A stretch of DNA of 64,000 nt from Holophagales bacterium (GTDB taxonomy: Bacteria; Acidobacteriota; Thermoanaerobaculia; Multivoradales; Multivoraceae), in NCBI GenBank assembly GCA_009837885.1, contig VXSP01000015.1, positions 14,065 to 78,064 on the forward strand, in the 5' to 3' direction. Positions 1,526-59,607 of this stretch are shown piece by piece. Each line of letters begins with the position of its first letter. Positions within the stretch are counted from its first letter, which is position 1. The translations under genes were made by a program, and so were the position numbers. The notes beneath the pieces were generated by a model, which searched no databases, was not told where the DNA came from, and was given only the letters and a program-made list of their open reading frames with translations.

Positions 1526-1577
1526 CGCTTCGCGGCTTGGCCCGGATGCCGGCGGGGACGCCGGCGCACCCAGTGTG
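1526..1577 (+). repeat. REP-like hairpin repeat, copy 1 (left stem-loop degenerate)
   Basis: ...CCGGATGCCGGCGGGGACGCCGGCGCACCCAGTGTG. The stem TGCCGGCG and its complement CGCCGGCA flank the loop GGGA. It lies 6 bp downstream of the stop of the gene at 1584-3164. Confidence 0.8.
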
Positions 1578-1583
1578 ATTCGG

Positions 1584-3164
1584 CTAGGGGCCGGCGGATG
1601 ACGCCGTCCCGCCGCCGACCGGTTCGGCGAACAGCGGCATCTGCTGCGGCTGGTCGGTGTCCGCGCCGATCGTGACCGTTCCCTGGAGTTGACCCTTGTC
1701 GTTGAGGCGGCCCTCGATCACGGTCGTCGTGGCGCTCGCGTTGAGGGTGGGGAACTGCGTCGTGATCCGAAGGGCGTCGCCCTGCCACTCGAAGTCGTCG
1801 AGGACGATGGAGTAGATGCCGCCCATGTAGAGCCAGCCTTCGCCTTCATGCGGAACGTGGAAGCCCATGAAGGCTCCGGACACGTAGGAGTCCTTCGCCG
1901 GATGCAATGCCAGGAGGTCGAGGATCTGCTCCCTCTGGTTCTGCTGCTCGAAGAGGACGCCTTCCTTCCGGGTGACCTCGATGAACCCGTTGAACATCTC
2001 GCTGAACGTGTCGCCGCGGTAGATGATCTCCTGCGTCGGGTCCGGGTTGGCCGGGTTGTCCTCGGAGTTGTCCCAGACGGCGGTGACGTCGAGGCGGCTG
2101 CCGGCCGGAATGTCGATCGGCTGGGTCGGGTAGTACAGCCACTGCCAGTTGTAGTCGTAGTTCGGTACGTCCAGCAGCGTCTCGGTGGAGCCGTCCGGGT
2201 AGGTGACCTCGTAGCTCATCGCCTTGCCGCGGACATGCATGTGCGGGCTGAAGGCGAGAATCTGGACGTCCTTGTCGAACAGGTAGTGGGCGTTCTCGGC
2301 GTGGTGGCCGGCGCCCGGCGGAATGCGCAGGCCGGTGTTGGTCACCGGAATCGTGATGACCTCCTTCTCGAGATCGCCTTCGCCGAAGTGGAGCCCGATT
2401 CGCGAGGCGTCACGCGTCGCTTCGCCGATCGGATGGTAGTGCTGATCGACGATGATGCGGATCTTCGAGCCGAAGCGGCGGCCGACGCCGTCAGGGAAGA
2501 CGTAGGGCGGCATGCCGGCCGTCCAGATGCCGAGGACGCCGGAGGCGGCGGGGTCGCCCTCGTTCAGCTCGCTCACGTAGGTCGTCAGGAAGTGATGGGT
2601 GACGCGGGAGTCCTCGGGCAGGAACTCGATGGCACGGACCCAGCGCGGCTCGCCGAGGTCGACCTCGACGATCTGCTGCGGGAAGATGTCTTCGCCCTCG
2701 GCCGGCACCTCGATGCTGTCGAGGGTGACGACGAAGTCCGGCTCGCCGAGCTTCCAGCCCTTCGGGAAGGTCGGGGCTTCTGGCATATCGGCAAGATCGC
2801 CCTGCGGAGCGCCGGACTTCGCCCAGGTCACGATCGTCTCGATCTCGCTGTCGGTCAGCGAGAGGTCGTTCGACCAGACGTGGTTCTCGGACTCGCCGCT
2901 CCACGGCGGCATGTCGCGGTTCTCGACGGCGCGGGCGATCGAGCGGGCCCACGGCCGGGCCTCCCTGTACGTCATCAACGACATCGGAGCGACCTCGCCG
3001 GTCCGGTGGCACTGCACGCAGTTGCTGAAGAAGATCGGCGCGACGTCGCGCGTGTAGGTCGGTGCCTCGGCGGCGGCGGCGGGGGATGACGCGACGATGG
3101 CGAGCGCAAGCGCGGCTGCAAGGAAGAGGGTCGCGGTCGGGATGCGGAGTGCTCTTTGGTTCAT
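1584..3164 (-). CDS. Secreted c-type cytochrome (Planctomycete cytochrome C-like CxxCH domain) fused to a copper type II ascorbate-dependent monooxygenase-like domain
   Basis: The start is at M16 of the tracked ORF (MNQRALRIPTATLFLAAALALA is a signal peptide). It has a haem motif CVQCH followed by ...MPPW. PHM/DBH-like copper ligand pattern: HH (THHFL), H (HYHPIG), HxH...M (SPHMHVRGKAMSYE), and NYDYNWQ. It is a paralog of 44859-46220. Confidence 0.65.
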   Translation of the reverse strand: MNQRALRIPTATLFLAAALALAIVASSPAAAAEAPTYTRDVAPIFFSNCVQCHRTGEVAPMSLMTYREARPWARSIARAVENRDMPPWSGESENHVWSNDLSLTDSEIETIVTWAKSGAPQGDLADMPEAPTFPKGWKLGEPDFVVTLDSIEVPAEGEDIFPQQIVEVDLGEPRWVRAIEFLPEDSRVTHHFLTTYVSELNEGDPAASGVLGIWTAGMPPYVFPDGVGRRFGSKIRIIVDQHYHPIGEATRDASRIGLHFGEGDLEKEVITIPVTNTGLRIPPGAGHHAENAHYLFDKDVQILAFSPHMHVRGKAMSYEVTYPDGSTETLLDVPNYDYNWQWLYYPTQPIDIPAGSRLDVTAVWDNSEDNPANPDPTQEIIYRGDTFSEMFNGFIEVTRKEGVLFEQQNQREQILDLLALHPAKDSYVSGAFMGFHVPHEGEGWLYMGGIYSIVLDDFEWQGDALRITTQFPTLNASATTTVIEGRLNDKGQLQGTVTIGADTDQPQQMPLFAEPVGGGTASSAGP

Positions 3165-3232
3165 GGGCGGCTCGCCTTGGTTGTTTGGGGCTCTGGCGGC
3201 TGGGCTCACTGTATCGTGAGTGTTGACTCAGT

Positions 3233-5314
3233 TTATTCGACGGGGACGACCTCCACGCGATCGATGCCGAGTCGCCCCTCCTCGACGACCAAGCCGATGG
3301 CGCCGCAGTCGAGGGCGTCGTCGGTGGCTTCGACGAGCGTCGCGCCGTCAACCTTGCCGGCGAGGCGGTCGCCACGGGCCTCGAGGGTCAGTTCGTAGCT
3401 CTCGCCGAGTCGCCACTCGAGGTCCGCTTCGGCGAGCACCTCTTCGGTATGCAGCACCCGCACGAGCTGCACGCGGTTCCCGGGAGCCAGTAGCAGGCCG
3501 TAGAAACGGGTGAGGCCCTGGACCCTGGCTGCGACGCCGGCCCTCCGGACGAGGTGAGGCGTCACGGCGGCGGTCACGGAGTAGTCGCGCCACTCGCGGG
3601 TTCCCTGCATCAGCAGGCCCATGCCGGTGTTCTGGACCAGCCGGAACATCTCGATTCCCTTGGTCAGCAGGTCGACGCCGTTGACCCAGGCGCGGCGCCA
3701 CATCGTGCCGCGGTGGGTCGAACGCTCGAGTCGGAACTTCGGGGCGCCGGACCACTTCAGCGACTCGAGGAAGACGGGTCCGGCCGGGCCTTGAACGCGG
3801 ACGCCCGCGGAGAAGACGGGGCCGGGCAGGGCCGGACTCGTGAACGACACCCGGGCGCTCTCACCCGGCCCGAGTTCGATGGTGTCGTCGTCGAAGGTCG
3901 CCGTTTCGTCGTCCTCGCCGTAGTAGCCGAGATAGACGTTCGCCCGGGCGCCTTCCTCGCCGGCGCTGAGCGTCGCCTCGACGGTCTGGCCGGGGAAGAT
4001 CCGCGGCGAGGCCATCAACGGATAGACCCGGCCCTCGAACCACTTCGCGGTCTCCAGCGAGGGGATGAAGACGGGAGAACCGACCCGGGCTTCTTCCGAG
4101 GCGTCGATGCGCAGCGCGCGCTCGCCGGAATCCAGGGTGACGTTCCTGACCTCGGCCTCGCCGTCGGCGACCTGGAAACCCTGAACCGAGCCGGGGAAGG
4201 CGAAGTGGAACTGCGCGCCGTCCCTGGGCGCCAGCGCCTCCCTGCCGGCGAGTCGGCGCCCCATGTTGACGATCTGCAGCGCTTCATGGCCGCAGTCGCT
4301 GATCGCCCGGCCGCCATCGGCCGTCGGCAAGTAGATGCGGTCGGCCACCGGCCCGCGCCAGTCGAGGCCCTTCTCGAGTCCGGCCTCGATCCCGGCCAGA
4401 CCCCCCTTGATGCCCAGGAGGCAGCCGACGTTGCCCGAGTTGCAGTCGGTGTCCCAGCCGCAGGTGTTGACGATCTTCAGCGTCTCGGCGAAGTCGCTCT
4501 CGCCGTGCAGTAAGGCGAGGATGATCAGGCCGTGGTTGGGGACCATGTGGCAGTTGCCGCCGTACTTGTCGTAGCCGTAGCGCTCGGCCAGCCTTTCCCG
4601 GTTGGCGCGCCAGTCGCCGTTCGCGGCATGCCAGCGACGCAGGTCCCCGATCATCCGGGCGATCACCGAGTCCCGCGGGATGTAGCCGAGGGCGACGTCC
4701 AGGAGCGTGTCCGTGTCCTGATCGACGAACGCCATCGACTCCATCGCGGCCAGCACGCGCGCGCCGTAGACCGCTTCGCCGTCGTGGCTCACCCGCGCGG
4801 CGGCGGTGGCCAGGCGGACCGCCAGGTCCGGGTCGCCAGGAGCGACCATCGCCCAGCCGTCGATGAAGATCTGGGCGCCGATCTGCTCGGCCACCACCTT
4901 GCCGTTCAGCTCCATCGAGCCGCTCTCGGGCGCCTCGATCCCGCTCTTGAGACGCAGGTAGGCGGTGTGCTCGGTGGAGTTGCCGAGGCCGCCCCACCAC
5001 AGCACCGTGCGCTCCCGGATCAGGTAGTTGAGCCACGTCTCGCCGACTTCCCGCGAACTGAGATCGGCGCCGGAGCCGTGGTCCTCGAGCGCGCGCAGGA
5101 AGGTGAAGGTCCCCGTGATGTCGTCGTCGGTGACGATCAGGGGAACGTCGAGCCGGTCGTGGACGTAGTACTCGATGTCGCCCAGCCGTTTGCGGATCCA
5201 CTCGTAGGGCCAGCCCTCGAAGGGGCGGCCGAGGTAGACGCCGATGACCTTGCCGAGGACGCCGGCGTAGACGCGGTCCTTGTAGTCCTGGGGTAGTTGC
5301 ATGTCTTCGGCCAA
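3233..5314 (-). CDS. ADP-ribosylglycohydrolase family protein with a C-terminal DUF1080/LamG-like (3-keto-disaccharide hydrolase-like) domain
   Basis: 693 aa. The N-terminal ~330 aa match the ARH fold pattern (VLGKVIGVYLGRPFEG...; TDDDITGTF; GWDTDCNSGNVGCLLG). The C-terminal ~200 aa resemble a DUF1080 jelly-roll (TREWRDYSVTAAV...GRLGIDRVEVVPVE). Confidence 0.65.
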   Translation of the reverse strand: MAEDMQLPQDYKDRVYAGVLGKVIGVYLGRPFEGWPYEWIRKRLGDIEYYVHDRLDVPLIVTDDDITGTFTFLRALEDHGSGADLSSREVGETWLNYLIRERTVLWWGGLGNSTEHTAYLRLKSGIEAPESGSMELNGKVVAEQIGAQIFIDGWAMVAPGDPDLAVRLATAAARVSHDGEAVYGARVLAAMESMAFVDQDTDTLLDVALGYIPRDSVIARMIGDLRRWHAANGDWRANRERLAERYGYDKYGGNCHMVPNHGLIILALLHGESDFAETLKIVNTCGWDTDCNSGNVGCLLGIKGGLAGIEAGLEKGLDWRGPVADRIYLPTADGGRAISDCGHEALQIVNMGRRLAGREALAPRDGAQFHFAFPGSVQGFQVADGEAEVRNVTLDSGERALRIDASEEARVGSPVFIPSLETAKWFEGRVYPLMASPRIFPGQTVEATLSAGEEGARANVYLGYYGEDDETATFDDDTIELGPGESARVSFTSPALPGPVFSAGVRVQGPAGPVFLESLKWSGAPKFRLERSTHRGTMWRRAWVNGVDLLTKGIEMFRLVQNTGMGLLMQGTREWRDYSVTAAVTPHLVRRAGVAARVQGLTRFYGLLLAPGNRVQLVRVLHTEEVLAEADLEWRLGESYELTLEARGDRLAGKVDGATLVEATDDALDCGAIGLVVEEGRLGIDRVEVVPVE

Positions 5315-12149: not shown

Positions 12150-14245
12150 TGGCCGAAGCAGCCCGAGCGTCGCGACCGTCGCTGCGGGAGCACGAAAAGC
12201 AACTCGACCGCGCGGCCAGCGTTCTCGACCTGGGCACGGATATCGGGTTCCGGGAGGTCCTGCGCATCTTCGCGCGGGTCGTCTCGACCTTCCGGCTGTT
12301 CAAGGCGCGGATCGCGACGAAGCTCGCCTTCATCACGGTGGAGCTCGTCTTTCGGCTGATGGTCGCGCCCTGGCCGGGCAAGGTCGTCGTCGACCACGTC
12401 ATCCTGGGCATGCCCATTAGCGACGCGTCGGGCTTTCCTGCCTTCCTGGCACCCGCCGTGCTGCTGCTGGACGGCATGGGGCCGGTGGAGATGATGCTCT
12501 GGGTGTTCCTGCTCGGGGTGTTCATGGTGACGGTCTTCGGGTTCACCACGAGCCGGGGCGCGGGCAGGTCTCCCAGCGGAGCGCCCACAGGGGCCTCGGC
12601 GGGCTCTTCCGGGGGCGCCACGGCCCTCACGCCGCAGGGCCTCGGCACCCTGGCCCAGGGCCACGACATCGCCACGCAGACGGAGAATCAGGCCAACCTC
12701 GGTTCGGGCCTGATGGCGGGCATCCTCGGGTTCATCGACTTCCGGGTGCATCTTCGCCTTTCGCAGTCGATGAACCACTTCCTCCGAACCCGGGTAGCCG
12801 GGAAGCTGCGGTCGCTGCCGATGACGACCCTGGACGACCTGCGGATCGGCGACAGCGTCTACCGCGTCCTGTACGACACCACCAGCGCCAACATGCTGCT
12901 GCACGGCATCGCGCTGGGGCTCTACTCCGGCCTGCTCGGCGTGGTGATCACCCTCTACATCATGTTCACGTACTTCGGCGCCGCACCGGAGGTCATCGTG
13001 CTGGGCATGCTCGCCCTTCCGATCGTGTTCCTGATCGAACTCCCCTTTGCCCGCATGGCGCGGCGTCGAGGCCAGGCCAGCCGCGCCTCCGGCTCGAGCA
13101 CGACGAGCAACATCGAAGAGGGGATGAGCAACGTTCTCGCCGTTCAGAGCCTCGGCGGTAACGAGCGGGAAGCGCGGCGATTCCGGCGGGCGAGTGCGGA
13201 GTCGTTCAAGCGTTTCCGCACGGAGTGGTTCCTGGTGCTCACGGTCCGGCAGGCCTTCAGTCTGGCGCTGATGCTCGGCCAGGTCCTGTTCTTCATCGTG
13301 ATGGCGGGCCGCGTGATCGACGGCACGTTCACCGCCGGCGACTACTTCGTCCTCACGTACTACTACTTCGTCCTCAGCGCGACGTTCGGCGCCTGGGGCT
13401 TTGTGTACACGGAGTGGCAGGGCTACATCGCCGGCATGCGCCGGGTGTTCTTCCTGATGGGCCTGCCGGAAGAGAAGACGCGGGACGGCGTCGAACTGGA
13501 CAGGATCAAGCGCGGCGTCGAGATGAGGGGCGTCGGCCTGACCTACCCGGACGGCCGCCGCGCGCTCCGCAACGTCGATCTGGAAGCCCGCATCGGCGAG
13601 ATCGTCGCGTTCGTCGGCCCGACCGGGGCCGGCAAGACCAGCCTCGCGTACATGGTGCCGGCCTTCGTTCAGGCGACCGAGGGGACGGTAGAAGTCGACG
13701 GCGTCGATCTGAAGGACGTGGCGGTGGAAAGCCTCAGGAAGCAGGTGTCGTACGTCTTCCAGGAAACGCAGCTCTTCTCCGATTCGATCCTCGAGAACAT
13801 CCGCTACGGCAACCAGGCCGCGACGGAGGCGCAGGTCGAGCGTGCCGCGCGCGTTGCCGGCGCCCACGACTTCATCGCCGCGCTGCCGGACGGCTACCGG
13901 ACCAACCTCGGCACCGTGACCAGCAAGCTGTCGGTCGGACAGAAGCAGCGCATCGCGATCGCCCGGGGGCTCCTCCGGGAAGCGCGCATCCTGATCCTGG
14001 ACGAACCGACCTCAGCGCTCGACCCGGAGACCGAGGCCTACCTGGTCGACGCGCTGCACGAAGCGGCGAAGGACCGGCTCGTCATCATCATCGCTCACCG
14101 TCTGTCGACGATCGCCAACGCCGATCGGATCTACTTCCTGGAGGACGGCGAGGTGCGTGAATCCGGCTCGCATGAGGAGTTGATGGCAACGCCGGACGGG
14201 CGGTACCGCGAGTATGTGTCGCTGCAGGCTGGTTCACAGGCTTGA
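12146..14245 (+). CDS. Fused ABC exporter (TMD plus NBD); second half of the heterodimeric pair
   Basis: 699 aa. Walker A GPTGAGKTS, signature LSVGQKQR, Walker B ILILDEPT. It is translationally coupled to the upstream exporter. It is ~80% identical in protein to the exporter at 17778-19730. Confidence 0.85.
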   Translation: MMAEAARASRPSLREHEKQLDRAASVLDLGTDIGFREVLRIFARVVSTFRLFKARIATKLAFITVELVFRLMVAPWPGKVVVDHVILGMPISDASGFPAFLAPAVLLLDGMGPVEMMLWVFLLGVFMVTVFGFTTSRGAGRSPSGAPTGASAGSSGGATALTPQGLGTLAQGHDIATQTENQANLGSGLMAGILGFIDFRVHLRLSQSMNHFLRTRVAGKLRSLPMTTLDDLRIGDSVYRVLYDTTSANMLLHGIALGLYSGLLGVVITLYIMFTYFGAAPEVIVLGMLALPIVFLIELPFARMARRRGQASRASGSSTTSNIEEGMSNVLAVQSLGGNEREARRFRRASAESFKRFRTEWFLVLTVRQAFSLALMLGQVLFFIVMAGRVIDGTFTAGDYFVLTYYYFVLSATFGAWGFVYTEWQGYIAGMRRVFFLMGLPEEKTRDGVELDRIKRGVEMRGVGLTYPDGRRALRNVDLEARIGEIVAFVGPTGAGKTSLAYMVPAFVQATEGTVEVDGVDLKDVAVESLRKQVSYVFQETQLFSDSILENIRYGNQAATEAQVERAARVAGAHDFIAALPDGYRTNLGTVTSKLSVGQKQRIAIARGLLREARILILDEPTSALDPETEAYLVDALHEAAKDRLVIIIAHRLSTIANADRIYFLEDGEVRESGSHEELMATPDGRYREYVSLQAGSQA

Positions 14246-15266
14246 GGGGCACACCGGGAGGGTCGAGGCCCTCACGGTGACGCCGGACGGCCGGCGCGTC
14301 GTCTCCGCGTCGGCGGACGCTACGCTGCGGGTTTGGGACCTCGAATCGGGGCGGGCCCTGCACACGCTCGAGGGTCACCGCGCCGGTGTTTGGTGTGTCG
14401 CCGTAACGCCGGACGGCAAGCGAGCCGTATCCGGTTCCTTCGACGCTACGTTGCGGGTCTGGGATCTTGACTCCGGCCGTACGCTCCATGTGCTCACGGG
14501 ACACGCGACGGAGGTCTACTCGGTTGCGGTGACGCCCGATGGCACGCGGGCCGTCTCCTCCTCCGCGGATGCCACCCTGCGGGTCTGGGACTTCGGGACG
14601 GGCCGGGAAGTGCACGTGTTGGAGGGGCACACGGACGACGTCAAGTCCTTCGCCCTGACTGCCGACGGCACTCGTGTCGTCTCCGTCTCCTGGGACAGGA
14701 CAGTCCGAGTGTGGGACTTGGAGGCCGGACTGGAGTTGCGCACCCTCGAAGGACACACCGGTGCGGTCCACGCCGTGGCCGTCGCTCCGGACGGCAGGCG
14801 AGCCATCTCCGCGTCCGGCGACCGGACGCTGCGCGTCTGGAATCTCGACTCGGGCCGCGCATTGCATGCGCTCGAAGGACACACGGCAGAGGTCTACGGC
14901 GTGGCAGTGGCACCGGACGGCGCAACAGCAGTCTCCGCGTCTGCCGACACAACACTCCGCGGCTGGAATCTCCAAACGGGCCGTGGCCGCCACGTACTTG
15001 AGGGACACACCGAACCGGCTTTCTCCGTGACTTTGACGCCGAACGGCCGGCGCGCCGTCTCCACCTCCCCGGACCGGACCTTGCGCTTATGGAACCTCGA
15101 ATCAGGGCAGCAGCTCGCCGCCTTCGAGTGCAACGACTGTGTACGCCCTTGCGCCGTCTCGCTCGACGGCCAGACCGTCGTCGCCGGTGACGCAAGCGGC
15201 ATCGTCTATGTCGTTAGCGCCGGCACAGTTCGTCGAGACGCTCGGTCAGCGTGCGGACGACTCTGA
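14214..15266 (+). CDS. WD40-repeat beta-propeller protein (8 highly regular repeats, no other domain)
   Basis: Eight tandem ~42-aa units of the form LEGHTxxVxxVAVTPDGxRAVSxSxDxTLRVWDLxSGRxLHx. Its start overlaps the ABC exporter stop by 32 bp. Confidence 0.8.
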   Translation: MCRCRLVHRLEGHTGRVEALTVTPDGRRVVSASADATLRVWDLESGRALHTLEGHRAGVWCVAVTPDGKRAVSGSFDATLRVWDLDSGRTLHVLTGHATEVYSVAVTPDGTRAVSSSADATLRVWDFGTGREVHVLEGHTDDVKSFALTADGTRVVSVSWDRTVRVWDLEAGLELRTLEGHTGAVHAVAVAPDGRRAISASGDRTLRVWNLDSGRALHALEGHTAEVYGVAVAPDGATAVSASADTTLRGWNLQTGRGRHVLEGHTEPAFSVTLTPNGRRAVSTSPDRTLRLWNLESGQQLAAFECNDCVRPCAVSLDGQTVVAGDASGIVYVVSAGTVRRDARSACGRL

Positions 15267-21640: not shown

Positions 21641-22594
21641 ATGCGCAGCTTCCTCGCGCGCCGCCTGTTGCAGGCGGTGCCCGTTCTCCTCCTGGTCACG
21701 TTCCTGGTGTTCGCGCTGATGCTCGCGATTCCGGGCGACCCGGCGCGGGCGTTCATCGGGCCCGGCGAGGCGCTCGACGAAGAGCAGTTGCAGCTCATCC
21801 GCGAACGTCACCACCTGGACGAACCGGTGATCGTCCAGTACCTGATCTGGCTCGGCAACGTCCTCCAGGGCGACTTCGGCCGTTCGACCCAGAACATGCG
21901 CCCGGTGGCGGAGGAACTCGGCGGCCGGGCTCTGGTGACCCTGCAGTTCGGCCTCGCGGCCTGGATTCTCGCGGTGCTGGTCGGCGTGCCGGCCGGCATT
22001 GCATCGGCGGTCTATCGCGGCAAACCGATCGACTACGCGGCGACGGTGGTCTCGATCGGCGGGGTCGCCATCCCGAACTTCTGGCTCGGCATCATGGCGA
22101 TCCTGCTCTTCGGCGTGGGGCTCGGCTGGCTGCCGAGCCAGGGCTACGTGAGCCTCTTCGACGACCCGCTGCAGAGCCTGCGCCACATGGTCCTGCCGGC
22201 GTTCGCCCTCGGTGTCACGAGCTGCGCGCTGATCATGCGGCAGAGCCGCTCGGCCATGCTCGAGGTGCTTGCCCAGGACTACCTGCGTACCTCTCGTGCC
22301 CGGGGGTCGAGGGAGCGCACCGTGATCTGGTCGCATGCCCTGCGCAACGCGCTGCTGCCGGTCATCACGATTCTCGGCCTGCAGACGGGCCGCATCTTCG
22401 CCGGGGCGATCGTCATCGAGACGCTCTTCGGCATCCCCGGCACCGGCCAGTACATCGTGCAGGCGATCTTCGCCCGCGACTTCCTGGTCGTGCAGGCGGC
22501 GGTGCTGCTGATGGCGGTCGCCGTGCTCGCCGCGAATCTCGTCACCGACCTCGCCTGCGCCTGGCTCGACCCGAGGATCAAGTTCGGTGACTAG
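21641..22594 (+). CDS. ABC transporter permease (DppB/OppB-like)
   Basis: 317 aa, 6 TM. The N-terminus MRSFLARRLLQAVPVLLLVTFLVFALMLAIPGDP is typical, and the EAA-like loop is present (DYLRTSRARGSRERTVIW). Confidence 0.85.
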   Translation: MRSFLARRLLQAVPVLLLVTFLVFALMLAIPGDPARAFIGPGEALDEEQLQLIRERHHLDEPVIVQYLIWLGNVLQGDFGRSTQNMRPVAEELGGRALVTLQFGLAAWILAVLVGVPAGIASAVYRGKPIDYAATVVSIGGVAIPNFWLGIMAILLFGVGLGWLPSQGYVSLFDDPLQSLRHMVLPAFALGVTSCALIMRQSRSAMLEVLAQDYLRTSRARGSRERTVIWSHALRNALLPVITILGLQTGRIFAGAIVIETLFGIPGTGQYIVQAIFARDFLVVQAAVLLMAVAVLAANLVTDLACAWLDPRIKFGD

Positions 22595-23567
22595 GAATGT
22601 GCGCCGCAAGACCGGGTACGCCGCCGCCCCGGCCAACCGGGTGCTGTCGATTGGGTGCGCCGGCGTCCCCGCCGGCATCCGGCGCGAAGCGCCGGCCTCT
22701 GGAGGCGCTGCTCCGCCCAGCCACCCGACCCTCGAGCTGCTGCGCAAGCTCGCCTCTGTGCCCCAGGCGCTGGCCGGCCTCGTCGTGCTGGCGCTGATCG
22801 CCGCGGCGGCGGTGCTGGCGCCCTGGATCGTCCCCGTCGACGCCGAGGAGATGGACTTCGACAACCTGCTCTCGGGCCCGAGCGCCGCGCACTGGCTCGG
22901 CTCGGACCAGATGGGCCGCGACACGCTGGCCCGGCTGATCGTCGGCGCGCGGATCGCGCTGTCCGTCAGCCTTGGCGCCGTCGGCCTCGGCGTGTTGCTG
23001 GGAGTGCCTCTCGGCCTGCTGTCGGTCTACTTCCGCGGCCGCGTCGACGACGTGCTGATGCGGCTCATGGACGCGCTGGTCACGTTCCCCAGCCTGCTGA
23101 TCGCGGTCGGTCTGGCCGCCGCCCTCGGCGGCTCGCTCCGCACCGTGATCATCGCCATCGGCATCGCGAACGTGCCGTGGATGGCCAGGATCGTTCGCAG
23201 CCAGGGGCTCTCCATCCGCGAGCGGGACTTCGTCAAGGCCGCGGAGTCGCTCGGCCTCAGCCACCCGCGCATCATCCTGCGCCACATCCTGCCCAACTGC
23301 ATCGCCCCGGTCATCGTCCAGAGCACCCTCAGCATGGGCTACGCGGTGCTGACCGAAGCCGCCCTCGGCTTCGTCGGCGTCGGCATCCAGCCGCCCACGC
23401 CGACCTGGGGCAACATGCTCCAGCAGGCCTTCCCGATGCTCGAGCAGCAGCCGCTGCTTTCGATCGTCCCGGGCGTGGCGATCTTCCTGCTGGTGCTGTC
23501 GTTCAACTGCGTGGGGGACGCGCTGCGGGATCTGCTGGATCCGCGGCTGCGGGGGGTGATTCACTAA
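22587..23567 (+). CDS. ABC transporter permease (DppC/OppC-like); its 5' region contains a REP copy, so the true start may be the GTG near 22758
   Basis: 326 aa. A GTG start overlaps the dppB-like stop. The conserved core begins at ~LELLRKLASVPQALAGLVVLALIAAAAVLAPWIVPVD, and the EAA loop is FVKAAESLGLSHPRIILRHILPN. Residues 20-40 (GCAGVPAGIRREAPASGG) are encoded by a reverse-oriented REP. Confidence 0.8.
   Translation: MTRNVRRKTGYAAAPANRVLSIGCAGVPAGIRREAPASGGAAPPSHPTLELLRKLASVPQALAGLVVLALIAAAAVLAPWIVPVDAEEMDFDNLLSGPSAAHWLGSDQMGRDTLARLIVGARIALSVSLGAVGLGVLLGVPLGLLSVYFRGRVDDVLMRLMDALVTFPSLLIAVGLAAALGGSLRTVIIAIGIANVPWMARIVRSQGLSIRERDFVKAAESLGLSHPRIILRHILPNCIAPVIVQSTLSMGYAVLTEAALGFVGVGIQPPTPTWGNMLQQAFPMLEQQPLLSIVPGVAIFLLVLSFNCVGDALRDLLDPRLRGVIH
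22653..22706 (-). repeat. REP-like double-hairpin repeat (full-length copy, reverse orientation) inside the tracked dppC-like ORF
   Basis: The reverse complement reads GGCCGGCGCTTCGCGCCGGATGCCGGCGGGGACGCCGGCGCACCCAAT, with both stem-loops (CCGGCGC-TTC-GCGCCGG and TGCCGGCG-GGGA-CGCCGGCA). Confidence 0.8.
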
Positions 23568-23569
23568 CC

Positions 23570-23917
23570 ATGACCGAGACCGTGACGATTCCGAAGGCCG
23601 AGTATCAACGATTGTCTGCCGTCGAGGAAGATCACGCCGACATCCGGGCCGTGCTCGCCGTGCAGGCGAGAGTGGACGCCGGGACCGAGGAGCTCGTGCC
23701 CGCCGCGATGGTCAGCCGTCTGATCGATGGCGAGTCGCCGTTACGGGTCTGGCGCGAGTACCGTGGCCTCTCGCAGGCCGCTCTGGCCCGCACAGCTGAT
23801 ACGAGTCGTGTCCAGATCGTTGACATCGAAGCCGGTCGCCGAACTGGCTCCGTGCGCACGCTTCGCCGGCTCGCTGACGCCCTCGGTGTCGGCTTGGACG
23901 ACGTCGTTCCAGGCTAG
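23570..23917 (+). CDS. HTH-XRE family antitoxin-like protein (C-terminal helix-turn-helix), copy 1
   Basis: 115 aa. ESPLRVWREYRGLSQAALARTADTSRVQIVDIEAGRR is an XRE-type HTH. The start is 2 bp after the dppC-like stop. It is ~70% identical to 24934-25245. No toxin partner is recognisable. Confidence 0.65.
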   Translation: MTETVTIPKAEYQRLSAVEEDHADIRAVLAVQARVDAGTEELVPAAMVSRLIDGESPLRVWREYRGLSQAALARTADTSRVQIVDIEAGRRTGSVRTLRRLADALGVGLDDVVPG

Positions 23918-26396: not shown

Positions 26397-26430
26397 CAGA
26401 GCCGGCGGGGACGCCGGCGCACCCAGTCTG
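26397..26430 (+). repeat. REP-like repeat, partial copy (right stem-loop only)
   Basis: AGCCGGCGGGGACGCCGGCGCACCCAGTCTG, lying between the sulfatase stop and the RHH gene start. Confidence 0.75.
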
Positions 26431-33667: not shown

Positions 33668-33719
33668 GAAGCCGGCGCTTCGCGCCGGATGCCGGCGGGG
33701 ACGCCGGCGCACCCAGTGT
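33668..33719 (+). repeat. REP-like double-hairpin repeat (full copy) abutting the DUF1501 stop codon
   Basis: GAAGCCGGCGCTTCGCGCCGGATGCCGGCGGGGACGCCGGCGCACCCAGTGTC. Its 3' end provides the complement of the TGA stop of the DUF1501 gene. Confidence 0.85.
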
Positions 33720-38319: not shown

Positions 38320-38370
38320 TGAGGACTCAGGATTGAACGGCGCAGTCTACCAAGCAGCCGGTCCCTGCTG

Positions 38371-38440
38371 GGTGCCGCTGCGGGATCTCGAGGCTCCACA
38401 CTGGGTGCGCCGGCGTCCCCGCCGGCTGCCGCCGGAGGCG
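38371..38440 (-). repeat. REP-like repeat (reverse orientation, with a partial second copy)
   Basis: CACACTGGGTGCGCCGGCGTCCCCGCCGGCTGCCGCCGG is the reverse complement of the core, and it is preceded by the degenerate half-copy CTGGGTGCCGCTG. It lies between the sulfatase stop (38488) and the PSD1 start (38319). Confidence 0.75.
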
Positions 38441-38487
38441 GCTTTGAAACGCGCCGGCCGTCAGGCCGGCTCCGCTTCGCGCCGCCC

Positions 38488-40311
38488 CTACTTTCTCCGC
38501 ACGTACACGTAGTAGGCGCTCGCGATGACTTCCCGCCCTTCTTCGAACCAGGTGTGCAGGGCCATGGGACCCTCGGGCAGTGTCACCGTGAAGGTGGCCT
38601 CCCTGTCGTCGCTGTCCACTCGCGTCGTCAGCCCCTCGAAGCCGTAGGGCCTCTTGTCGCCGATGTCGAGGTGATGGTGGTCGCTGATGAACAGGCGTGC
38701 CGAGGAAATCGGCAACGCCGTGCTGCCCTCGGGCGCCGATGCGAGCGGTACGTCGATTTCCCTGGGCCAGCGCCGCAGTGCGAACTCGTACTCGCCCGCT
38801 TCGGCCACGTCGAGCAGCCAGTACCCGGTCTTCCGGGTGCCGCGCCGAACCTGCGCCTGCTGATCGACGAAGACGTCGAGCCACTCGCAGCCGGTCAGCA
38901 TCATGGGGTTCTCGATGTCGTCGCCGATGACGATCCGCTGGGGCTCGTTGGCGGTCGCGGCCACTTCGTCCCACCACTCGTAGAGGTGGTCCCGCATCCT
39001 GGCGACCACTTCAGGGTGCCGGTCGATCACGTTCGTGGTCTGCAACGGATCGGATGCCAGGTCGTAGAGCTCGCGGTCTTCGAGCAGGCGCCAGTGCTTC
39101 CACAGGACCCCCGCGTGACTCCGGGTGAGGATCGACTGGGTGTAGGGCGAGGGGTAATTGAAGCCGGACGGCATCCGGCTGTAGTTGATGATCAGCATGC
39201 GGTCCTCGGGAACGCCGGCGTCGCCGCGCAGCACGGGCGCCAGACTCATGCCGTTGAAGTTCGCGGCTGCCGGCGTTTCGATGCCGGAGAGGTCCAGAAG
39301 CGTCGGCAGGACATCCTGAACCTGTGTCAGGCCCGTCACGTCCTGCGGGTCGGCCAGGTCGCCGTTCGGCCAACTGATGAAGAACGGCACGCGATGGCCG
39401 CCCTCCCACAACTCGGTCTTCATGCCGCGCATGCCGGCGTTGAAGTAGAGCGGGCCGTGGGTGCTGCCGTTGTCGGTCATGAAGATCACGATCGTGTTCT
39501 CCCGGAGCCCTTCCTCCTCGAGGAACTCGGCGAGCTTGCCCATGTTTGTGTCGATGTTGCGGACCATCCCCAGGTACCTGCTCAGCCTGGTCTTCAGCGC
39601 CGTGCTCATGTCGGCGAACTCGGGCCGGGCCAGCGCGGCCGCCAGCGCAGCTTCGTCCTCCTCCTTGGCGATCAGCGGACCGTGCGGCGTGTTCGGAGCG
39701 ATGTAGGTCAGGAAGGGCGTTCCGGACGCCACGGAACGCTTCATGAACTCGATTGCTTCGTCGAAGAAGACGTCGGTGCAGTACCCCTTGAACGCCTCCC
39801 GTTTGCCATTGCGAATGTAGGTGTCGTCGAAGTAGTCGTTGCCCCAGAAGTCGGGTACCGAGCCGATGTGGGAGGAGGGGAACCACACCGTTTCGTGGAA
39901 GCCGCGGTCCTCCGGCCGGAAGGGGTAGTTGTCGCCGAGGTGCCACTTGCCGAACACCCCGGTTCGGTAGCCGGCCTCCGCGAAGATGTCGGCCATCGTC
40001 GGGATCTCGGGCCGCAGCAGGGCGCGACCGCTGCTGACGTTGATCGCGCCATTCCGCGCGGCGTCCATGCCGGTCAGCAGTTGTCCGCGGGTTGGCGTGC
40101 ACATCGGCGCCACGTGAAAGTCGTCCAGGCGCACGCTCTCGCTTCGCAGGCGGTCGAGATGCGGTGTCTCGAGCACAGGGTTGCCGTGGGCGGACAGTTC
40201 GCCGTATCCCTGATCGTCCGTCATCACGAGGACGACGTTCGGCGGCTGGGCGAACGCGGCCGCGGTGAGCGCGAACAGCAGAACACCGGCAAGAGACGTT
40301 GCTAGCCTCAC
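38488..40311 (-). CDS. Sulfatase (N-acetylgalactosamine-6-sulfatase/arylsulfatase-like), secreted
   Basis: 607 aa with a signal peptide. The signature is PMCTPTRGQLLTGMDAARNG (C-x-P-x-R), with NVVLVMTDDQGYGEL. Confidence 0.9.
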   Translation of the reverse strand: MRLATSLAGVLLFALTAAAFAQPPNVVLVMTDDQGYGELSAHGNPVLETPHLDRLRSESVRLDDFHVAPMCTPTRGQLLTGMDAARNGAINVSSGRALLRPEIPTMADIFAEAGYRTGVFGKWHLGDNYPFRPEDRGFHETVWFPSSHIGSVPDFWGNDYFDDTYIRNGKREAFKGYCTDVFFDEAIEFMKRSVASGTPFLTYIAPNTPHGPLIAKEEDEAALAAALARPEFADMSTALKTRLSRYLGMVRNIDTNMGKLAEFLEEEGLRENTIVIFMTDNGSTHGPLYFNAGMRGMKTELWEGGHRVPFFISWPNGDLADPQDVTGLTQVQDVLPTLLDLSGIETPAAANFNGMSLAPVLRGDAGVPEDRMLIINYSRMPSGFNYPSPYTQSILTRSHAGVLWKHWRLLEDRELYDLASDPLQTTNVIDRHPEVVARMRDHLYEWWDEVAATANEPQRIVIGDDIENPMMLTGCEWLDVFVDQQAQVRRGTRKTGYWLLDVAEAGEYEFALRRWPREIDVPLASAPEGSTALPISSARLFISDHHHLDIGDKRPYGFEGLTTRVDSDDREATFTVTLPEGPMALHTWFEEGREVIASAYYVYVRRK

Positions 40312-44778: not shown

Positions 44779-44843
44779 GAAGCCGGTGCTTCGCGCCGGA
44801 TGCCGGCGGGGACGCCGGCGCACCCAGTGTGGGATGCCGGCGG
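44779..44843 (+). repeat. REP-like double-hairpin repeat (full copy plus partial tandem reiteration)
   Basis: AGAAGCCGGTGCTTCGCGCCGGATGCCGGCGGGGACGCCGGCGCACCCAGTGTG followed by GGATGCCGGCGG. It lies between two convergent genes. Confidence 0.85.
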
Positions 44844-46280: not shown

Positions 46281-46400
46281 GGAGCCGGCGCTGCGCGCCG
46301 GATGCCGGCGGGAACCCGTGTGGCGCGGGCCCGCGCCACACGCGTCACAGTCCGTGCGCCCGTCATCGGGCGCACGGATGACACGCCGGCGCACCCAGTC
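46281..46400 (+). repeat. Composite REP-like element: a REP copy whose loop carries a ~70-bp insert with two further perfect palindromes
   Basis: GGAGCCGGCGCTGCGCGCCGGATGCCGGCGGG, then the insert AACCCGTGTGGCGCGGGCCCGCGCCACACGCGTCACAGTCCGTGCGCCCGTCATCGGGCGCACGGATGACA, then CGCCGGCGCACCCAGTCTG. The insert contains the palindromes GTGTGGCGCGGGCCCGCGCCACAC and TCCGTGCGCCC-GTCAT-CGGGCGCACGGA. Confidence 0.8.
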
Positions 46401-46415
46401 TGAGCGCGTGCCTCT

Positions 46416-49588: not shown

Positions 49589-49640
49589 GCAGGCCGGCGC
49601 TTTGCGCCGGATGCCGGCGGATGACACGCCGGCGCACCCG
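49589..49640 (+). repeat. REP-like repeat variant (loop ATGACA) overlapping the start of the downstream serine hydrolase gene
   Basis: GCAGGCCGGCGCTTTGCGCCGGATGCCGGCGGATGACACGCCGGCGCACCCGGTGG. The ATG in the loop is the inferred start codon of the 49621-50880 gene. Confidence 0.75.
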
Positions 49641-50880
49641 GTGGCTTGCGGCTTGCGTGGTGGCAGTGGCCGCGACGCCGCTTCCTGCTCAGGAGATTCC
49701 AGTGGCGGCCCCGGAAGACGTCGGCATGTCGAGCGAGCGTCTGCTGGAGATCGACGCCGTCATCAAACGGCACATCGACGCGGGCGAGATCCAGGGGGCG
49801 GTCACGGCCGTGGCGCGGCGCGGGAAGGTCGTCCACTTCGAGGCGTACGGCCTGTTGGACGTCGAGCGGGCCCGGCCGATGGAGAAGGATGCCATCTTCC
49901 GCATGGCCTCCTCGTCGAAGCCGGTGCTCGGGGTCGCAGCGATGATGATGATCGAGGAGGGTCTCTTCGATCCGGCCGACGAGGTCGCGAAGTACCTGCC
50001 TGAGTTCAGCGACATGCAGGTCGCCGTGCTCAAGGAGCCGGCGGACAGGGACGTCATTCCCGCGTTCGTGGCGCCGGGCGAGACGCCGGCGCACCGCCTG
50101 GTGCCGGCGGAGCGCCCGATCACGATTCACGACCTGCTGACCCACACCGCTGGCTTGGGCAGCTACGGACTGGGCACGGCGGTCGCGAAGCTCCCGAACG
50201 TCGGCCCGGACGACACCCTTGCGAGCCGCGTGCCGCTGTACGCCCGCATGCCGCTCGACTTTCAACCGGGCTCGCGGTGGGGCTACAGCCCGCGCATCGG
50301 ACACGACGTGGTAGCCCGCATCATCGAGATCGTCTCGGGCGTGTCCTACGACGACTTCCTTCGCCGGCGGATCTTCAGGCCGCTCGGCATGACCGATACC
50401 CACTTCTTCCTGCCGCCGGAGAAGGAGTCCAGACGGGTCGTGATCCAGGGTCTCGATGCCAAGTCGAAGGGGTGGGACAAGCCGAGCCGCTATGCCTCGG
50501 CTTCCGGCGGACTCTCCAGCACCGCTGAGGACTTTCTTCGTTTCGAGCAGATGCTGGCCGGCGGCGGCGCCCTGTTCGGGAACCGTCTGCTGAGCCCGGA
50601 GTCGGTCGCCCTGATGTCGAGCAACCAGGTTGGTGGGCTCTACGGACAGGGAGGCAAGCAGCCCGGCTCAGGATTCGGCTACGCCGTCTCCGTCGTGCTC
50701 GACCCGGTGGCCGCGAGGAGCGCGCGCGGCAAGGGCGCCTTTGGTTGGGGCGGTGCGTTCGGAACCGTGTCCTGGACCGACCCGGCGAACGAGATCACGG
50801 CCGTCCTGATGGTTCAGCAGGGCAGCAAGGGCGTGTCAGCCGGTTTCGAGAACGCCATCAAGGCCGCGATCGTCGACTGA
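49621..50880 (+). CDS. Beta-lactamase-family serine hydrolase (class C / penicillin-binding protein-like)
   Basis: The start is at M30 of the tracked ORF. Signal peptide MTRRRTRWLAACVVAVAATPLPAQ. The SxxK nucleophile motif is MASSSKPV, followed by the YSPR (YxN-like) block and a later GWGG. Confidence 0.8.
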   Translation: MTRRRTRWLAACVVAVAATPLPAQEIPVAAPEDVGMSSERLLEIDAVIKRHIDAGEIQGAVTAVARRGKVVHFEAYGLLDVERARPMEKDAIFRMASSSKPVLGVAAMMMIEEGLFDPADEVAKYLPEFSDMQVAVLKEPADRDVIPAFVAPGETPAHRLVPAERPITIHDLLTHTAGLGSYGLGTAVAKLPNVGPDDTLASRVPLYARMPLDFQPGSRWGYSPRIGHDVVARIIEIVSGVSYDDFLRRRIFRPLGMTDTHFFLPPEKESRRVVIQGLDAKSKGWDKPSRYASASGGLSSTAEDFLRFEQMLAGGGALFGNRLLSPESVALMSSNQVGGLYGQGGKQPGSGFGYAVSVVLDPVAARSARGKGAFGWGGAFGTVSWTDPANEITAVLMVQQGSKGVSAGFENAIKAAIVD

Positions 50881-57949: not shown

Positions 57950-57966
57950 TGCCGTCGCCGTCCGCG

Positions 57967-59607
57967 TCAGTCGCCGGCGCGCTGGAAGCGGACGGGCGAG
58001 ACGGACGGCTCGAGCGGAACGGCCACGACGTTGATCTTCCCGTCGTTGCCGTAGTCGAAGCGGACCTTGGCGCCGCCGCGTCCGGCCGCGGGCGCACTGG
58101 CCGGCAGGTCGTACGGGACCATCCACACGTCGTAGTGGTAGTGCCGGAGGGGGAACTCGATGCCCGCGACCTTAAGGACCAGGCCGTCCCCGTCCGTCCT
58201 CACGGTTGCCTTGCCGTAGCCCTCGTGCTCGTACTCGCCGGCGTGGTCGGCGAGCGGGTGGGAGGGACTCGTGTCCGCCACCGCGGCCGCGAGGTCCTTC
58301 TTCTTGGCCTCCTCGGCCTTCTCCTCCGCTTCCGCGATCTGCTTGCGGGCCCGCTCAGCCCAGTCGATCGGCTCGAGACCGAGCATGCGGTCGAACGCAT
58401 TGCGAACGACGAGCGCCGGCACCGTTCCGGAGTGCGACGTGTTGGACAGCGCGACGACGCCGATCTTCTCGTCGGGCAGCCACTCCATCGCCGAGATGAA
58501 GCCGTCGATGCCGCCGCCGTGGCTGATGTGCTTGTGCCCTCGGTACGTGCTCACCATGAGGCCCAGCCCGTAGGTGGGGTCGCCGATCTCCGGGCCGTTC
58601 TGCAGGCGCGCCTGGAGCGGGCCGGTCAGCACCATCTGGGGTAGCTGCATGAGCCTGGCCGAGGCTTCCTTCAGGATCTGCTCGTCGCCGACCTTGCCGT
58701 AGGCGAGATGGAACCGGACGTAGGCGGCGAGGTCGCGGGCCGACATGTTGATCGATCCTGCCGGTCCGATCGCGTCGATGTTGCGGAACGGCACCCGCTC
58801 GATCTCCTCGTCCGCGCCGTAGCCGTAGGAGAAGTCCTCGTCCTCCTGCATCTGGATCACCGAGAAGGTGGCCCGCTCGATGCCGAGCGGAGTGAGGACG
58901 CGCTCCTGGACGAGTTCCTCCCACGACTTGCCGCCGATCCGCTCGGAGACGATGCCGGCGGTCATGAACATCAGGTTCTGGTACTGGTACCTGCTTCTGA
59001 AGGAGGCGGAGGGCTCCAGGTGGTGAAGCCCCGCCAGCAGCTCTGAGCGGTTCCTGCCCGTGGCGTACCAGTACAGGTCGTGACGGGGCAGGCCCGAGCG
59101 GTGGCTCAGCAGGTCGACGGCGGTCATCTCGTCCGTCGCCGCCGGATCGTGGAGCCGGAACTCGGGCAGCACCGTCCGGATCGGATCGTCCCAGGCGAGG
59201 GCGCCGTCGTCCACCTGCATCGCCAGCAGGGTGGCGGTGAACGACTTCGTGTTCGAGCCGATGGCGAAGAGCGTGTCGGGAGTCACGGGCAGCTCTTCTT
59301 CGACGTTGCGCCAGCCGTAGCCCTTGGCGAACACGGTCTTGCCGTCCTCGACGATCGCCACGCCCAGGCCCGGCACCTTCCACTCCTGCATGATCGACTC
59401 GACCCACGGGTCGAAGCCGTCGAGCCGCTCGTCGACGGTTTGGGCGGAGAGGGATGCGGCTGCGAGGGCGAGGGCGGCGAAGAGCAGCGCTTGCGTAGCA
59501 AGGAGCCGCCGGCCTGTGGCCGGCGCGTTTCTTTGGCCGCCTGCGGCGGCGGCCGGCGGGGACGCCGGCGCACCCAGCGTGGGACGGATGTGCTGTAGGT
59601 GCCTCAT
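57967..59607 (-). CDS. Beta-lactamase-family serine hydrolase (D-Ala-D-Ala carboxypeptidase/esterase-like) with a C-terminal DUF3471 lipocalin-like domain
   Basis: 546 aa. The SxxK nucleophile motif is GSNTKSF, with YQYQN (YxN) and HGGG (KTG-equivalent). The C-terminal ~120 aa form a beta-rich domain. N-terminal residues 9-20 (PTLGAPASPPAA) are encoded by a REP. Confidence 0.85.
   Translation of the reverse strand: MRHLQHIRPTLGAPASPPAAAAGGQRNAPATGRRLLATQALLFAALALAAASLSAQTVDERLDGFDPWVESIMQEWKVPGLGVAIVEDGKTVFAKGYGWRNVEEELPVTPDTLFAIGSNTKSFTATLLAMQVDDGALAWDDPIRTVLPEFRLHDPAATDEMTAVDLLSHRSGLPRHDLYWYATGRNRSELLAGLHHLEPSASFRSRYQYQNLMFMTAGIVSERIGGKSWEELVQERVLTPLGIERATFSVIQMQEDEDFSYGYGADEEIERVPFRNIDAIGPAGSINMSARDLAAYVRFHLAYGKVGDEQILKEASARLMQLPQMVLTGPLQARLQNGPEIGDPTYGLGLMVSTYRGHKHISHGGGIDGFISAMEWLPDEKIGVVALSNTSHSGTVPALVVRNAFDRMLGLEPIDWAERARKQIAEAEEKAEEAKKKDLAAAVADTSPSHPLADHAGEYEHEGYGKATVRTDGDGLVLKVAGIEFPLRHYHYDVWMVPYDLPASAPAAGRGGAKVRFDYGNDGKINVVAVPLEPSVSPVRFQRAGD
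59560..59601 (+). repeat. REP-like repeat (partial left arm) inside the 5' coding end of the 57967-59607 gene
   Basis: GGCGGCGGCCGGCGGGGACGCCGGCGCACCCAGCGTG, located 6-40 nt downstream of the inferred ATG (minus strand). Confidence 0.75.

Follow-up and report, generated by a model that had tools for sequence, protein, structure and literature searches.

Palindromic repeats and RAYT transposases in sponge-associated Thermoanaerobaculia: a probable REP-RAYT system

[quoted passage not shown] The canonical tags published for REPs are GT[AG]G or CGTC (PMC3733652, PMC6006769). In the REPs and bacterial interspersed mosaic elements (BIMEs) of E. coli, a short hairpin, rich in GC and bearing a conserved unpaired motif at one foot, forms mosaics with other short modules and mostly follows genes, while the gene for the transposase TnpAREP (4ER8; subclass 2.2, Bertels group 2), which has HUH and Tyr motifs, is flanked by inverted REP pairs as a “REPtron”. 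The REPIN-RAYT system of Pseudomonas fluorescens (Bertels & Rainey 2011, PMC3116915; group 3) features several RAYT paralogues per genome, each with its own REP family, at fixed loci, together with inverted doublets and copy polymorphism between close relatives. Here we analyze 64,000 nt of a Holophagales bacterium (contig VXSP01000015.1, positions 14,065 to 78,064; this whole stretch is called the window), in which a short palindromic repeat occurs 11 times, and we find that these traits recur in its family, the RAYT genes, at what appear to be fixed loci, and the doublets in relatives of the window. It also shares with the GTAG-23 elements of Thermomicrobium roseum and with further REPs that bear a GTAG or CGTC tag (Di Nocera et al. 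2013, PMC3733652) the occurrence outside Proteobacteria in GC-rich genomes, and with the class 3 Y1 transposases (CnGA-footed hairpins, ~600 copies in Solibacter usitatus) and the “TIRYT” the presence of Y1-linked repeats in Acidobacteria. Our literature search found no description of REPs in sponge Acidobacteria and no mention of Ca. Multivorans; this is a REP family that was not described before, belonging to a known class of bacterial mobile DNA. Very probably, the copies are REP elements in BIME-like mosaics, and part of a REP-RAYT system conserved in sponge-associated Thermoanaerobaculia (Acidobacteriota).

All 11 copies listed in the first-pass annotation of the window are present at the positions and on the strands it gave. 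The right hairpin (TGCCGGCGGGGACGCCGGCA, up to 3 mismatches) is matched 9 times against 0.07 expected from dinucleotide-preserving shuffles, and the 3' arm with the tail (CGCCGGCGCACCCAGTGTG, up to 3 mismatches) 10 times against 0.10; 9-10 matches against ~0.1 are far more than chance would give. Two loop variants, the copies at 46281 and 49589, fall outside the strict-hairpin matches. Over 27 nt, five of the 11 have the same sequence, and another four deviate from it at a single position. A Hamming scan of the window detected no further good copy, the sole candidate being a coding-region site with 6 mismatches at 50073; likewise, the Rfam 15 covariance models gave no match at the gathering score over the whole window, and a tRNA scan found nothing. 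The earlier description of the repeat nevertheless has to be corrected. The 50-nt core that it quoted is matched by only two copies at up to 3 mismatches and is not the core of the family. Of the two adjacent stem-loops it described, the right one is found in every copy, loop variants included, but the left one, GCCGGCGCTTCGCGCCGG, in only five (22679, 33671, 44782, 46284 and 49593). Tandem reiterations do exist, but they mostly repeat the unpaired tail and not a hairpin arm (35306/35321/35350, 22607-22646 and 38364); the repeated piece at 44832 is GGATGCCGGCGG. Every copy forms the predicted hairpins when folded as single-stranded DNA, with modest z-scores of -1.0 to -5.9, because shuffled sequence of 67% GC folds well too.

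The unit common to all copies of the window and to ~190 copies in relatives is 27-30 nt long, GCCGGCGGGGACGCCGGCGCACCCAGT(GTG), and has a sharp 3' edge. Its two parts are a hairpin whose 7-bp stem is capped by four purines (GCCGGCG-GGGA-CGCCGGC; the R hairpin) and an unpaired tail, GCACCCAGT(GTG), whose conserved part is 8-10 nt long. The 7-bp stem with the 4-nt loop is present in nine window copies, while the other two have longer loops. We built an alignment, anchored on the core, of 164 copies taken both from the window and from the loci that were fetched. Within GCCGGCGGGGACGCCGGCGCACCCAGT each position carries ~2 bits of information; the GTG that follows carries less and the sequence after it almost none, and leftward of the core the content falls off gradually; the first 25 alignment positions are biased by the way in which the loci were retrieved, which leaves the sharp 3' edge unaffected. 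The left side is modular, with four recurrent modules: GCCGGCGCTTCGCGCCGG, the “A” hairpin, with AT after it; GGAGCCGGCC-nnnn-GGCCGGCGCGTTTC, a hairpin resembling a terminator, with GCCGCC-TKC-GGCGGC after it; GGTCGCCGCTTCGCGGCGCGTTTC…GAA; and GGAGCGAGGCC-TTCG-GGCCTCGC. On the complementary strand the foot reads 5'-CTGGGTGC-hairpin, and the four bases adjacent to the stem are GTGC. This is the same REP architecture with a different tag. In E. coli the foot is GTAG, whereas here it is CTGGGTGC on a stem of only 7 bp closed by a tetraloop, and in comparison to the REPs of T. roseum and other tagged families, the tag is neither GTAG nor CGTC and the unpaired part measures 8-10 nt. The likeness to REP and BIME elements that the first pass had pointed out is supported, while that to Rickettsia palindromic elements is loose, as the family is without the CGTC tag.

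Is the hairpin conserved as a structure? Using only the tail GCACCCAG as an anchor, we read a fixed 7-4-7 register upstream of 334 sites in the clade. All seven pairs are formed at 243 sites and five or six at 10, while the 81 sites with four pairs or fewer are tail-only repeats or unrelated sequence. Among the 243 perfect hairpins, 55 have fully complementary stems other than the majority GCCGGCG, namely GCCGACG/CGTCGGC, GCGGACC/GGTCCGC, GCGGGTC/GACCCGC, GCCGGCC/GGCCGGC and GCTGGCG/CGCCAGC. Doubly changed and still-paired stems thus far outnumber singly broken ones: the hairpin is under structural constraint and its stems co-vary. The loops are purine tetraloops (GGGA, AGAA, AGGA, GGGG, AGGG and AGAG). 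An earlier covariation alignment, which gave 100% pairing, was replaced by this fixed-register count; its variants had been chosen beforehand for perfect stems, so the result was circular and no independent evidence.

The first-pass annotation had suggested that a RAYT might be encoded elsewhere. This holds in relatives, where RAYT genes have REPs on both sides, but none of these genes was traced to the window's own genome. We searched the fetched loci (L numbers) by local tblastn, with an E. coli RayT query, and by a motif scan, and obtained two candidate open reading frames (ORFs), L102 2943-3593 on the minus and L109 7048-7716 on the plus strand. They match Pfam Y1_Tnp (PF01797) with E-values of 1e-7 and 1e-6, respectively, and the NCBIfam model NF047646 (REP_Tyr_transpos, “REP-associated tyrosine transposase”) with 81.7 and 78.5 bits at a cut-off of 80; NF047646 is matched by all 12 aligned homologues, 81.7 bits being the best score. 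The HUH motif PNHVHVLV (H125, H127) and the motif YIWLNP (Y184, N188, P189) are invariant in the 12 sequences. The best match in the PDB is E. coli TnpAREP 4ER8 (E 2.8e-4), with an alignment that spans both motifs. Judged from their sequences, the ORFs of the relatives are RAYTs with intact HUH and Tyr motifs.

Both RAYT genes have head-to-head composite REP pairs on either side. Further contigs were retrieved via the RAYT protein and not via the repeat, and therefore represent independent evidence. In total, REP pairs on both sides were mapped at L102, L109, L117, L126, L132, L137 and L139, and inverted doublets are seen at L033, L097, L044, L024 and L010 as well as at all mapped RAYT flanks. 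The RAYTs at the mapped loci form three clades, each with its own stem variant in the surrounding REPs, while the tail GCGCACCCAG is common to all. RAYT-1 (P0001, P0006 and the L109 ORF of the P0009 cluster) is flanked by the stem GCCGGCG or GCCGACG with a tail ending in …CAGTG, RAYT-2 (P0018, P0021, P0022 and P0148) by GCGGACC with …CAGAG, and RAYT-3 (P0026) by GCGGGTC with …CAGAG or …CAGTG. All copies of the window carry the RAYT-1 stem. Sequence (P0001 cluster, 86% identity) and locus both assign P0002 and P0121 to RAYT-1, and at L141 and L145 the identical gene slot is occupied by RAYT-1. In several genomes each clade keeps its neighbors: RAYT-1 follows genes for a sulfite dehydrogenase and a cytochrome c, and RAYT-2 lies between MnmA-IscS and VWA genes, inverted in one genome. 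One MAG (metagenome-assembled genome) from Aplysina, GCA_002238985.1, carries both RAYT-1 and RAYT-2. In the MnmA-IscS/VWA slot the two orientations of RAYT-2 are seen at L132 5001-5816 and L137 2501-3130, a difference that is consistent with inversion between the flanking inverted REPs.

The comparison with described transposases places these proteins apart. They are distant from E. coli TnpAREP (E 2.8e-4), have NHVH and YIWLNP instead of DHLH and YIHYNP (PMC6006769), are longer by ~35-40 residues in the part that joins the first strand to helix A, and come from another phylum, the Acidobacteriota. The RAYT motifs, NHVH and YIW[LQN]NP, agree neither with group 2 (DHLH/YIHYNP) nor with group 3, the group of P. 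fluorescens (DH[LF]H/YI[VI]ANP), and fit subclass 2.7 of Quentin et al. ([ND]HVH, YI[LR][NQ]NP, ~213 aa) about equally as subclass 2.1 (NHVH, YI[EH]LNP). The class 3 enzymes have a Y----Q motif (YV[VI]xEQ) and a CnGA foot, whereas here the motif is the Y---NP of class 2 and the foot is CTGGGTGC; the acidobacterial TIRYTs are associated with terminal inverted repeats, the RAYTs described here with REP hairpins. In P. fluorescens each paralogue has its own REP family too, but the families of the sponge clade have an identical foot and differ in stem and loop only. It may be, though this is somewhat less likely than not, that we are dealing with a long-lived and hitherto undescribed REP-RAYT partnership outside Proteobacteria. 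Up to three RAYT paralogues, fixed at separate chromosomal loci and with motifs outside groups 2 and 3, would then each sustain a REP population of its own; these populations would have one foot of 8-10 nt in common, GCGCACCCAG, and only the 7-bp stem would set them apart, so that the hairpin might serve as a natural “specificity code” for HUH-Y1 enzymes.

For the question of mobility we compared the window to OZ220742.1, a relative with 93-95% nucleotide identity. At three sites the window carries a copy and the relative is empty: 22595-22719 (+108 nt, corresponding to 36 codons in frame); 27833-27922 (+~90 nt; L035), directly upstream of a sulfatase start; and 59477-59602 (~100 nt; L100), where the relative has two genes that overlap at ATGA. 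Conversely, OZ220742.1 has filled sites after the OppC-like gene and near window position 56810 that are empty in the window. At the 22650 site, the GCCGGCG stem is present in the window and in COS3_bin_14, a more distant MAG has GCCGGCC-AGAA, and OZ220742.1 retains only an 18-nt remnant. Copies are both gained and lost between near relatives.

Could the copies be miniature inverted-repeat transposable elements (MITEs), i.e. deletion derivatives of a DDE-type insertion sequence that are mobilized in trans by cut and paste and have terminal inverted repeats and target-site duplications? For such an origin one could cite that ~10% of the copies in relatives lie within an outer inverted repeat, GCGCGGCAGAA…TTCTGCCGCGC, and that a few copies have flanking direct repeats. 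But the conserved unit is one hairpin with a one-sided tail and not a pair of terminal inverted repeats, and the associated transposases are of the Y1 type, with no DDE transposase among them. Moreover, no systematic target-site duplication was found, which is what HUH-Y1 chemistry would lead one to expect, and no systematic terminal inverted repeat either. Direct repeats of 9 nt or more flank 11.5% of the copies against 4% of mismatched controls, and most of them are explained by tandem duplications. We therefore consider this origin extremely improbable. The exceptions to the absence of duplications are a 15-nt direct repeat, CTGCAGCGCCGTTAG, on both sides of an A+R unit at L023 ~4600-4730, and an 83-nt tandem duplication at L101 3510-3680 that includes the end of the neighboring gene. 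The outer inverted repeat is present at L030, L047, L053, L055, L065, L112 and others; it often has CTAG at both ends and begins directly after CCCAGT. It is either a larger element type or the result of insertion into a palindrome. Some REPs of the T. roseum type are inserted in small GC-rich palindromes (PMC3733652), and by this analogy the outer repeat suggests insertion into, or co-mobilization with, another palindrome.

Genomic context was taken from the depositors' gene calls where available. As the first pass had noted, most copies follow stop codons: nine of the 11 lie within ~60 nt downstream of one, two of these between convergent genes and seven between same-strand genes (the copy at 22650 also falls within what is annotated as the 5' end of the following ORF). 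The remaining two are situated between divergent starts and in the 3' part of a PSD1 ORF. Nine copies are wholly intergenic; of the other two, one falls in what is annotated as an ORF's 5' end, the other within an ORF. Over the larger set, with genes called by a heuristic based on GC content at third codon positions (GC3; 198 copies, 118 of them between two called genes), convergent junctions hold 50 copies and make up 87 of all junctions, same-strand junctions 55 and 310, and divergent junctions 13 and 84, which corresponds to 42% of copies against 18% of gene junctions for the convergent class (chi-square p = 1e-7). Relative to transcription, 36 of the copies at same-strand junctions run antisense and 19 sense (p = 0.03).

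Could the repeats be signals selected by the host, such as terminators, stabilizers of mRNA 3' ends, or sites for nucleoid proteins or DNA-uptake receptors, with an incidental link to RAYTs? The location of nine window copies just 3' of stop codons, the enrichment between convergent genes and the conservation of the sequence over many species all point in this direction. The first-pass annotation had called the copies terminator-like, an idea based on position alone, and this part of it fails: the R hairpins are followed by GCACCCAGTGTG and have no T tract, and therefore are not intrinsic terminators. In a terminator scan of the window copies, none of the R hairpins was scored and only the accessory hairpin at 59507-59525 (tail CGTTTCTTTG) passes. 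Same-strand copies are more often antisense than sense, one copy sits between divergent starts and two are inside ORFs. Independent selection can explain neither 27/27-nt identity at unrelated sites nor presence or absence of copies between ~94% identical genomes, and it is hard to call incidental that each RAYT clade is surrounded by its own stem variant. Host-selected signals are thus a very unlikely explanation for the family as a whole, while individual copies may have been co-opted secondarily for a role in RNA.

Intragenic in-frame units are known among REPs of the T. roseum type too, in which head-to-head dimers predominate (PMC3733652). In the PSD1 protein of the window, ~35 residues of a REP composite (…SDTGCARGSGRTLGGRTLGAPASSPASEGNAPRSGDH…) are translated in frame near the C-terminus, and the frame goes on past the repeat to …SEFIYIN* (C-terminus ...AELYAWTRLSHVILAASEFIYIN*). 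An OppC-like permease has 36 codons of REP, again in frame, at its annotated N-terminus. With these two “coding” copies and several 5'-extended ORFs, the repeats inflate or distort gene calls.

Proteins of the window match residue for residue those of an ENA scaffold, ENGE20-1_SAMN12347678_METAG-scaffold_188 (81 kb), and are also identical on VYFK01000071 and VYFK01000139 (GCA_009842435.1). The genes are of the kind usually seen in symbionts of marine sponges, with sulfatases, PSCyt1/PSCyt2/PSD1 proteins with DUF1501, and a sodium:solute symporter (SSF). In a scan with one genome per species, an exact 25-mer of the repeat, GCCGGCGGGGACGCCGGCGCACCCA, occurs in at least 112 stretches from at least 23 species-level MAGs, which, among the matches listed, are labeled Thermoanaerobaculia, Candidatus Multivorans, “Holophagales” or Acidobacteria and represent one sponge-associated acidobacterial clade. 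The family, which the first pass had called lineage-specific, spans this clade and is not confined to a single strain or species. Among 2.9 million viral contigs there was no match to the 25-mer pattern, and a 60-nt copy used as query against plasmids gave chance-level hits only (29 nt, in Streptomyces genes).

Several observations weigh against a REP-RAYT system as the source of the window copies. The 64-kb window contains no RAYT, and the RAYT-bearing contigs that we retrieved all come from other sponge metagenomes or MAGs and none from the genome or sample of the window; a look-up via the neighboring cytochrome c gene yielded no RAYT either. In another MAG from an Ircinia sponge (VYAK01000084, L144 579-833) the RAYT-1 slot, next to the cytochrome c gene and a 283-aa gene, holds a REP pair only. 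The window copies are all singletons without inverted doublets, so that none has the REPIN arrangement, in contrast to P. fluorescens, and the foot reads GTGC within CTGGGTGC where the published REPs have GT[AG]G or CGTC. Finally, the context statistics rest on the GC3-heuristic gene calls, and the 112 loci were chosen by exact match to the majority variant, which biases both the copy counts and the apparent conservation of the core.

Some of these points would also be expected of a decaying and immobile REP population, in which the genome of the window has lost its RAYT and the copies are relics or co-opted structures, and the variant or degenerate state of several window copies (22650, 49613 and 59552) would fit as well. 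On the other hand, five of the copies are identical over 27 nt and another four have one difference, unlike a decaying population. The MAG is fragmented, and REP-flanked RAYT loci are typically found on short unbinned contigs of 1-4 kb. In a relative 96-98% identical, RAYT-1 lies between two REP pairs at this site (L141 2941-3633), and the RAYT-less slot could reflect either deletion by recombination between the flanking pairs or collapse of a short-read assembly between them. Decay is therefore unlikely, and we favor REP elements in BIME-like mosaics with a conserved RAYT as the explanation for the family.

Binding, cleavage, the use of single-stranded DNA as substrate and possible effects on RNA are inferred. 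With E. coli TnpAREP and the TnpA of IS200/IS605 as models, the system may operate as follows. The functional unit would be the 7-bp GC-rich hairpin with its 4-nt loop and the adjacent invariant single-stranded “foot”. An HUH-Y1 tyrosine transposase (RAYT) from a fixed chromosomal locus would bind the folded hairpin in single-stranded DNA, read the foot, and then cut and rejoin beside it. In this way REP units, or REP pairs with accessory hairpins, could be copied or removed at a low rate. Most new copies would persist just 3' of genes, and some of these might take on a secondary function as mRNA 3'-end structures; a few would persist as in-frame insertions in tolerant parts of proteins.

The individual copies of the window differ considerably in their modules. 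Copy 1 (1524-1577, plus strand) consists of the accessory hairpin GCCGCTTCGCGGC (1524-1536), the R hairpin GCCGGCG-GGGA-CGCCGGC (1548-1565) and the tail GCACCCAGTGTG (1566-1577), and occupies the 64-nt gap between the convergent genes 668-1519 (plus) and 1584-3209 (minus). Copy 2 (22607-22696, minus strand) has an A hairpin at 22679-22696, the R hairpin at 22659-22676, the tail GCACCCAATCGA at 22647-22658 and degenerate tail repeats at 22607-22646; it lies 12 nt past the stop of the permease gene 21641-22594, within the annotated 5' end of ORF 22587-23567. In copy 3 (26401-26430, plus) the R hairpin and tail stand alone (GCACCCAGTCTG), 28 nt downstream of a sulfatase stop (26459, minus strand); the flanking CCAGA/TCTGG could form an outer stem, and a copy at the same site is kept in L035 and L013. 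Copy 4 (27872-27901, plus), an R hairpin with the loop GGGG plus tail, lies between the divergent starts of a sulfatase (27832, minus) and a DUF2911 gene (27979, plus). Copy 5 (33671-33720, plus) comprises an A hairpin (33671-33688), the R hairpin (33691-33708) and a tail (33709-33720) that overlaps the stop codon (33719-33721) of a minus-strand DUF1501 gene.

Copy 6 (35259-35361, plus) is the intragenic, in-frame copy in the 3' part of the PSCyt1/PSCyt2/PSD1 gene 35170-38319 (minus), with an accessory hairpin at 35259-35273, an R hairpin with the loop AGGA at 35288-35305 and three tails at 35306-35317, 35321-35332 and 35350-35361. Copy 7 (38364-38470, minus), a composite “half-REPIN”, is situated in sense orientation between a sulfatase stop (38488) and the PSCyt start (38319). 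It contains the terminator-like hairpin GCCGGCC-TGAC-GGCCGGC followed by GCGTTTC (38453-38470), the hairpin GCCGCC-TCC-GGCGGC (38428-38442), the R hairpin (38409-38426), a tail (38397-38408) and an extra tail-like piece, GCACCCAGCAGG (38364-38375). Copy 8 (44782-44843, plus) has the A hairpin at 44782-44799, the R hairpin at 44802-44819, the tail at 44820-44831 and the partial repeat GGATGCCGGCGG at 44832-44843, between convergent genes with stops at 44747 and 44859.

Copy 9 (46284-46402, plus) is a long-loop variant, in which an A hairpin (46284-46301) is followed by the arms of the R stem (46304-46310 and 46384-46390), which enclose a 73-nt cassette of two hairpins (46311-46383), and by the tail GCACCCAGTCTG (46391-46402). 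Its minimum free energy as single-stranded DNA is -55.4 kcal/mol (z -5.9), and the same cassette is found in L132 (next to RAYT-2) and L126, with a different closing stem in each. Copy 10 (49593-49645, plus), located in sense orientation downstream of the stop of a PhyH gene (49537), is made up of an A hairpin (49593-49610), an R hairpin with the 7-nt loop GATGACA (49613-49633) and the variant tail GCACCCGGTGGC (49634-49645). Copy 11 (59508-59581, plus) is again a composite “half-REPIN”, with the terminator-like hairpin at 59508-59524 followed by CGTTTCTTT, the hairpin GCCGCC-TGC-GGCGGC at 59536-59550, the R hairpin at 59552-59569 and the tail GCACCCAGCGTG at 59570-59581. The plus strand holds nine of the 11 copies, and along the window there is a rise in cumulative GC skew; the idea of a replication-strand preference was dropped because orientation relative to the local GC skew is not significant over the 112 loci (odds ratio 1.65, p = 0.13).

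Arrays of tails alone (GCACCCAGTGTG, spaced by 15-38 nt) are found beside RAYT genes (L109 6690-7020 and 7900-8000) and beside some dispersed copies, in the window at 22607-22646 and 35306-35361; slippage or repeated cleavage and rejoining are possible origins. On the metagenome contig L116, an orthologue of the window's ABC_membrane_3 gene and the REP that goes with it (202-1122 against window 653-1575, 87% identity) lead straight into the RAYT-1 locus. The nine remaining contigs listed for this RAYT are without that gene upstream and, where annotated (L117), have the cytochrome c gene, and the join is probably an assembly chimera at the REP. The sulfatase ORF at 38488-40311 encodes 607 aa in the window and 434 aa on VYFK01000139 (L133 7466-8770); over 11.4 kb, 4 gap columns separate the two assemblies, so one of the two has a frameshift. 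Seven tandem units of 126 nt at 14269-15108, in ORF 14214-15266 for a repeat-domain protein, have no relation to the REP family; they are 60-76% identical and WD40-like (“...TLRVWDLESG”). A 269-nt segment is duplicated at 78% identity (23647-23915 and 24975-25243) in the stretch of lowest GC content (0.64, region 24-26 kb), among small HTH_3, PIN and DUF6364 genes; this region may be a small accessory or toxin-antitoxin-like islet.

What do these repeats mean for the symbionts? In practical terms, they break short-read assemblies, as seen in the 1-4 kb contigs that hold RAYT loci and, at REPs, in one join that is probably chimeric and one possible collapse, and at the same time they are natural markers for strain-level typing of these organisms. 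Three RAYT clades with three stems and one foot constitute a natural set for studying how HUH-Y1 enzymes tell hairpins apart. The family extends the range of REP-RAYT systems to uncultured sponge-symbiont Acidobacteriota, the Thermoanaerobaculia with Ca. Multivorans and its relatives.

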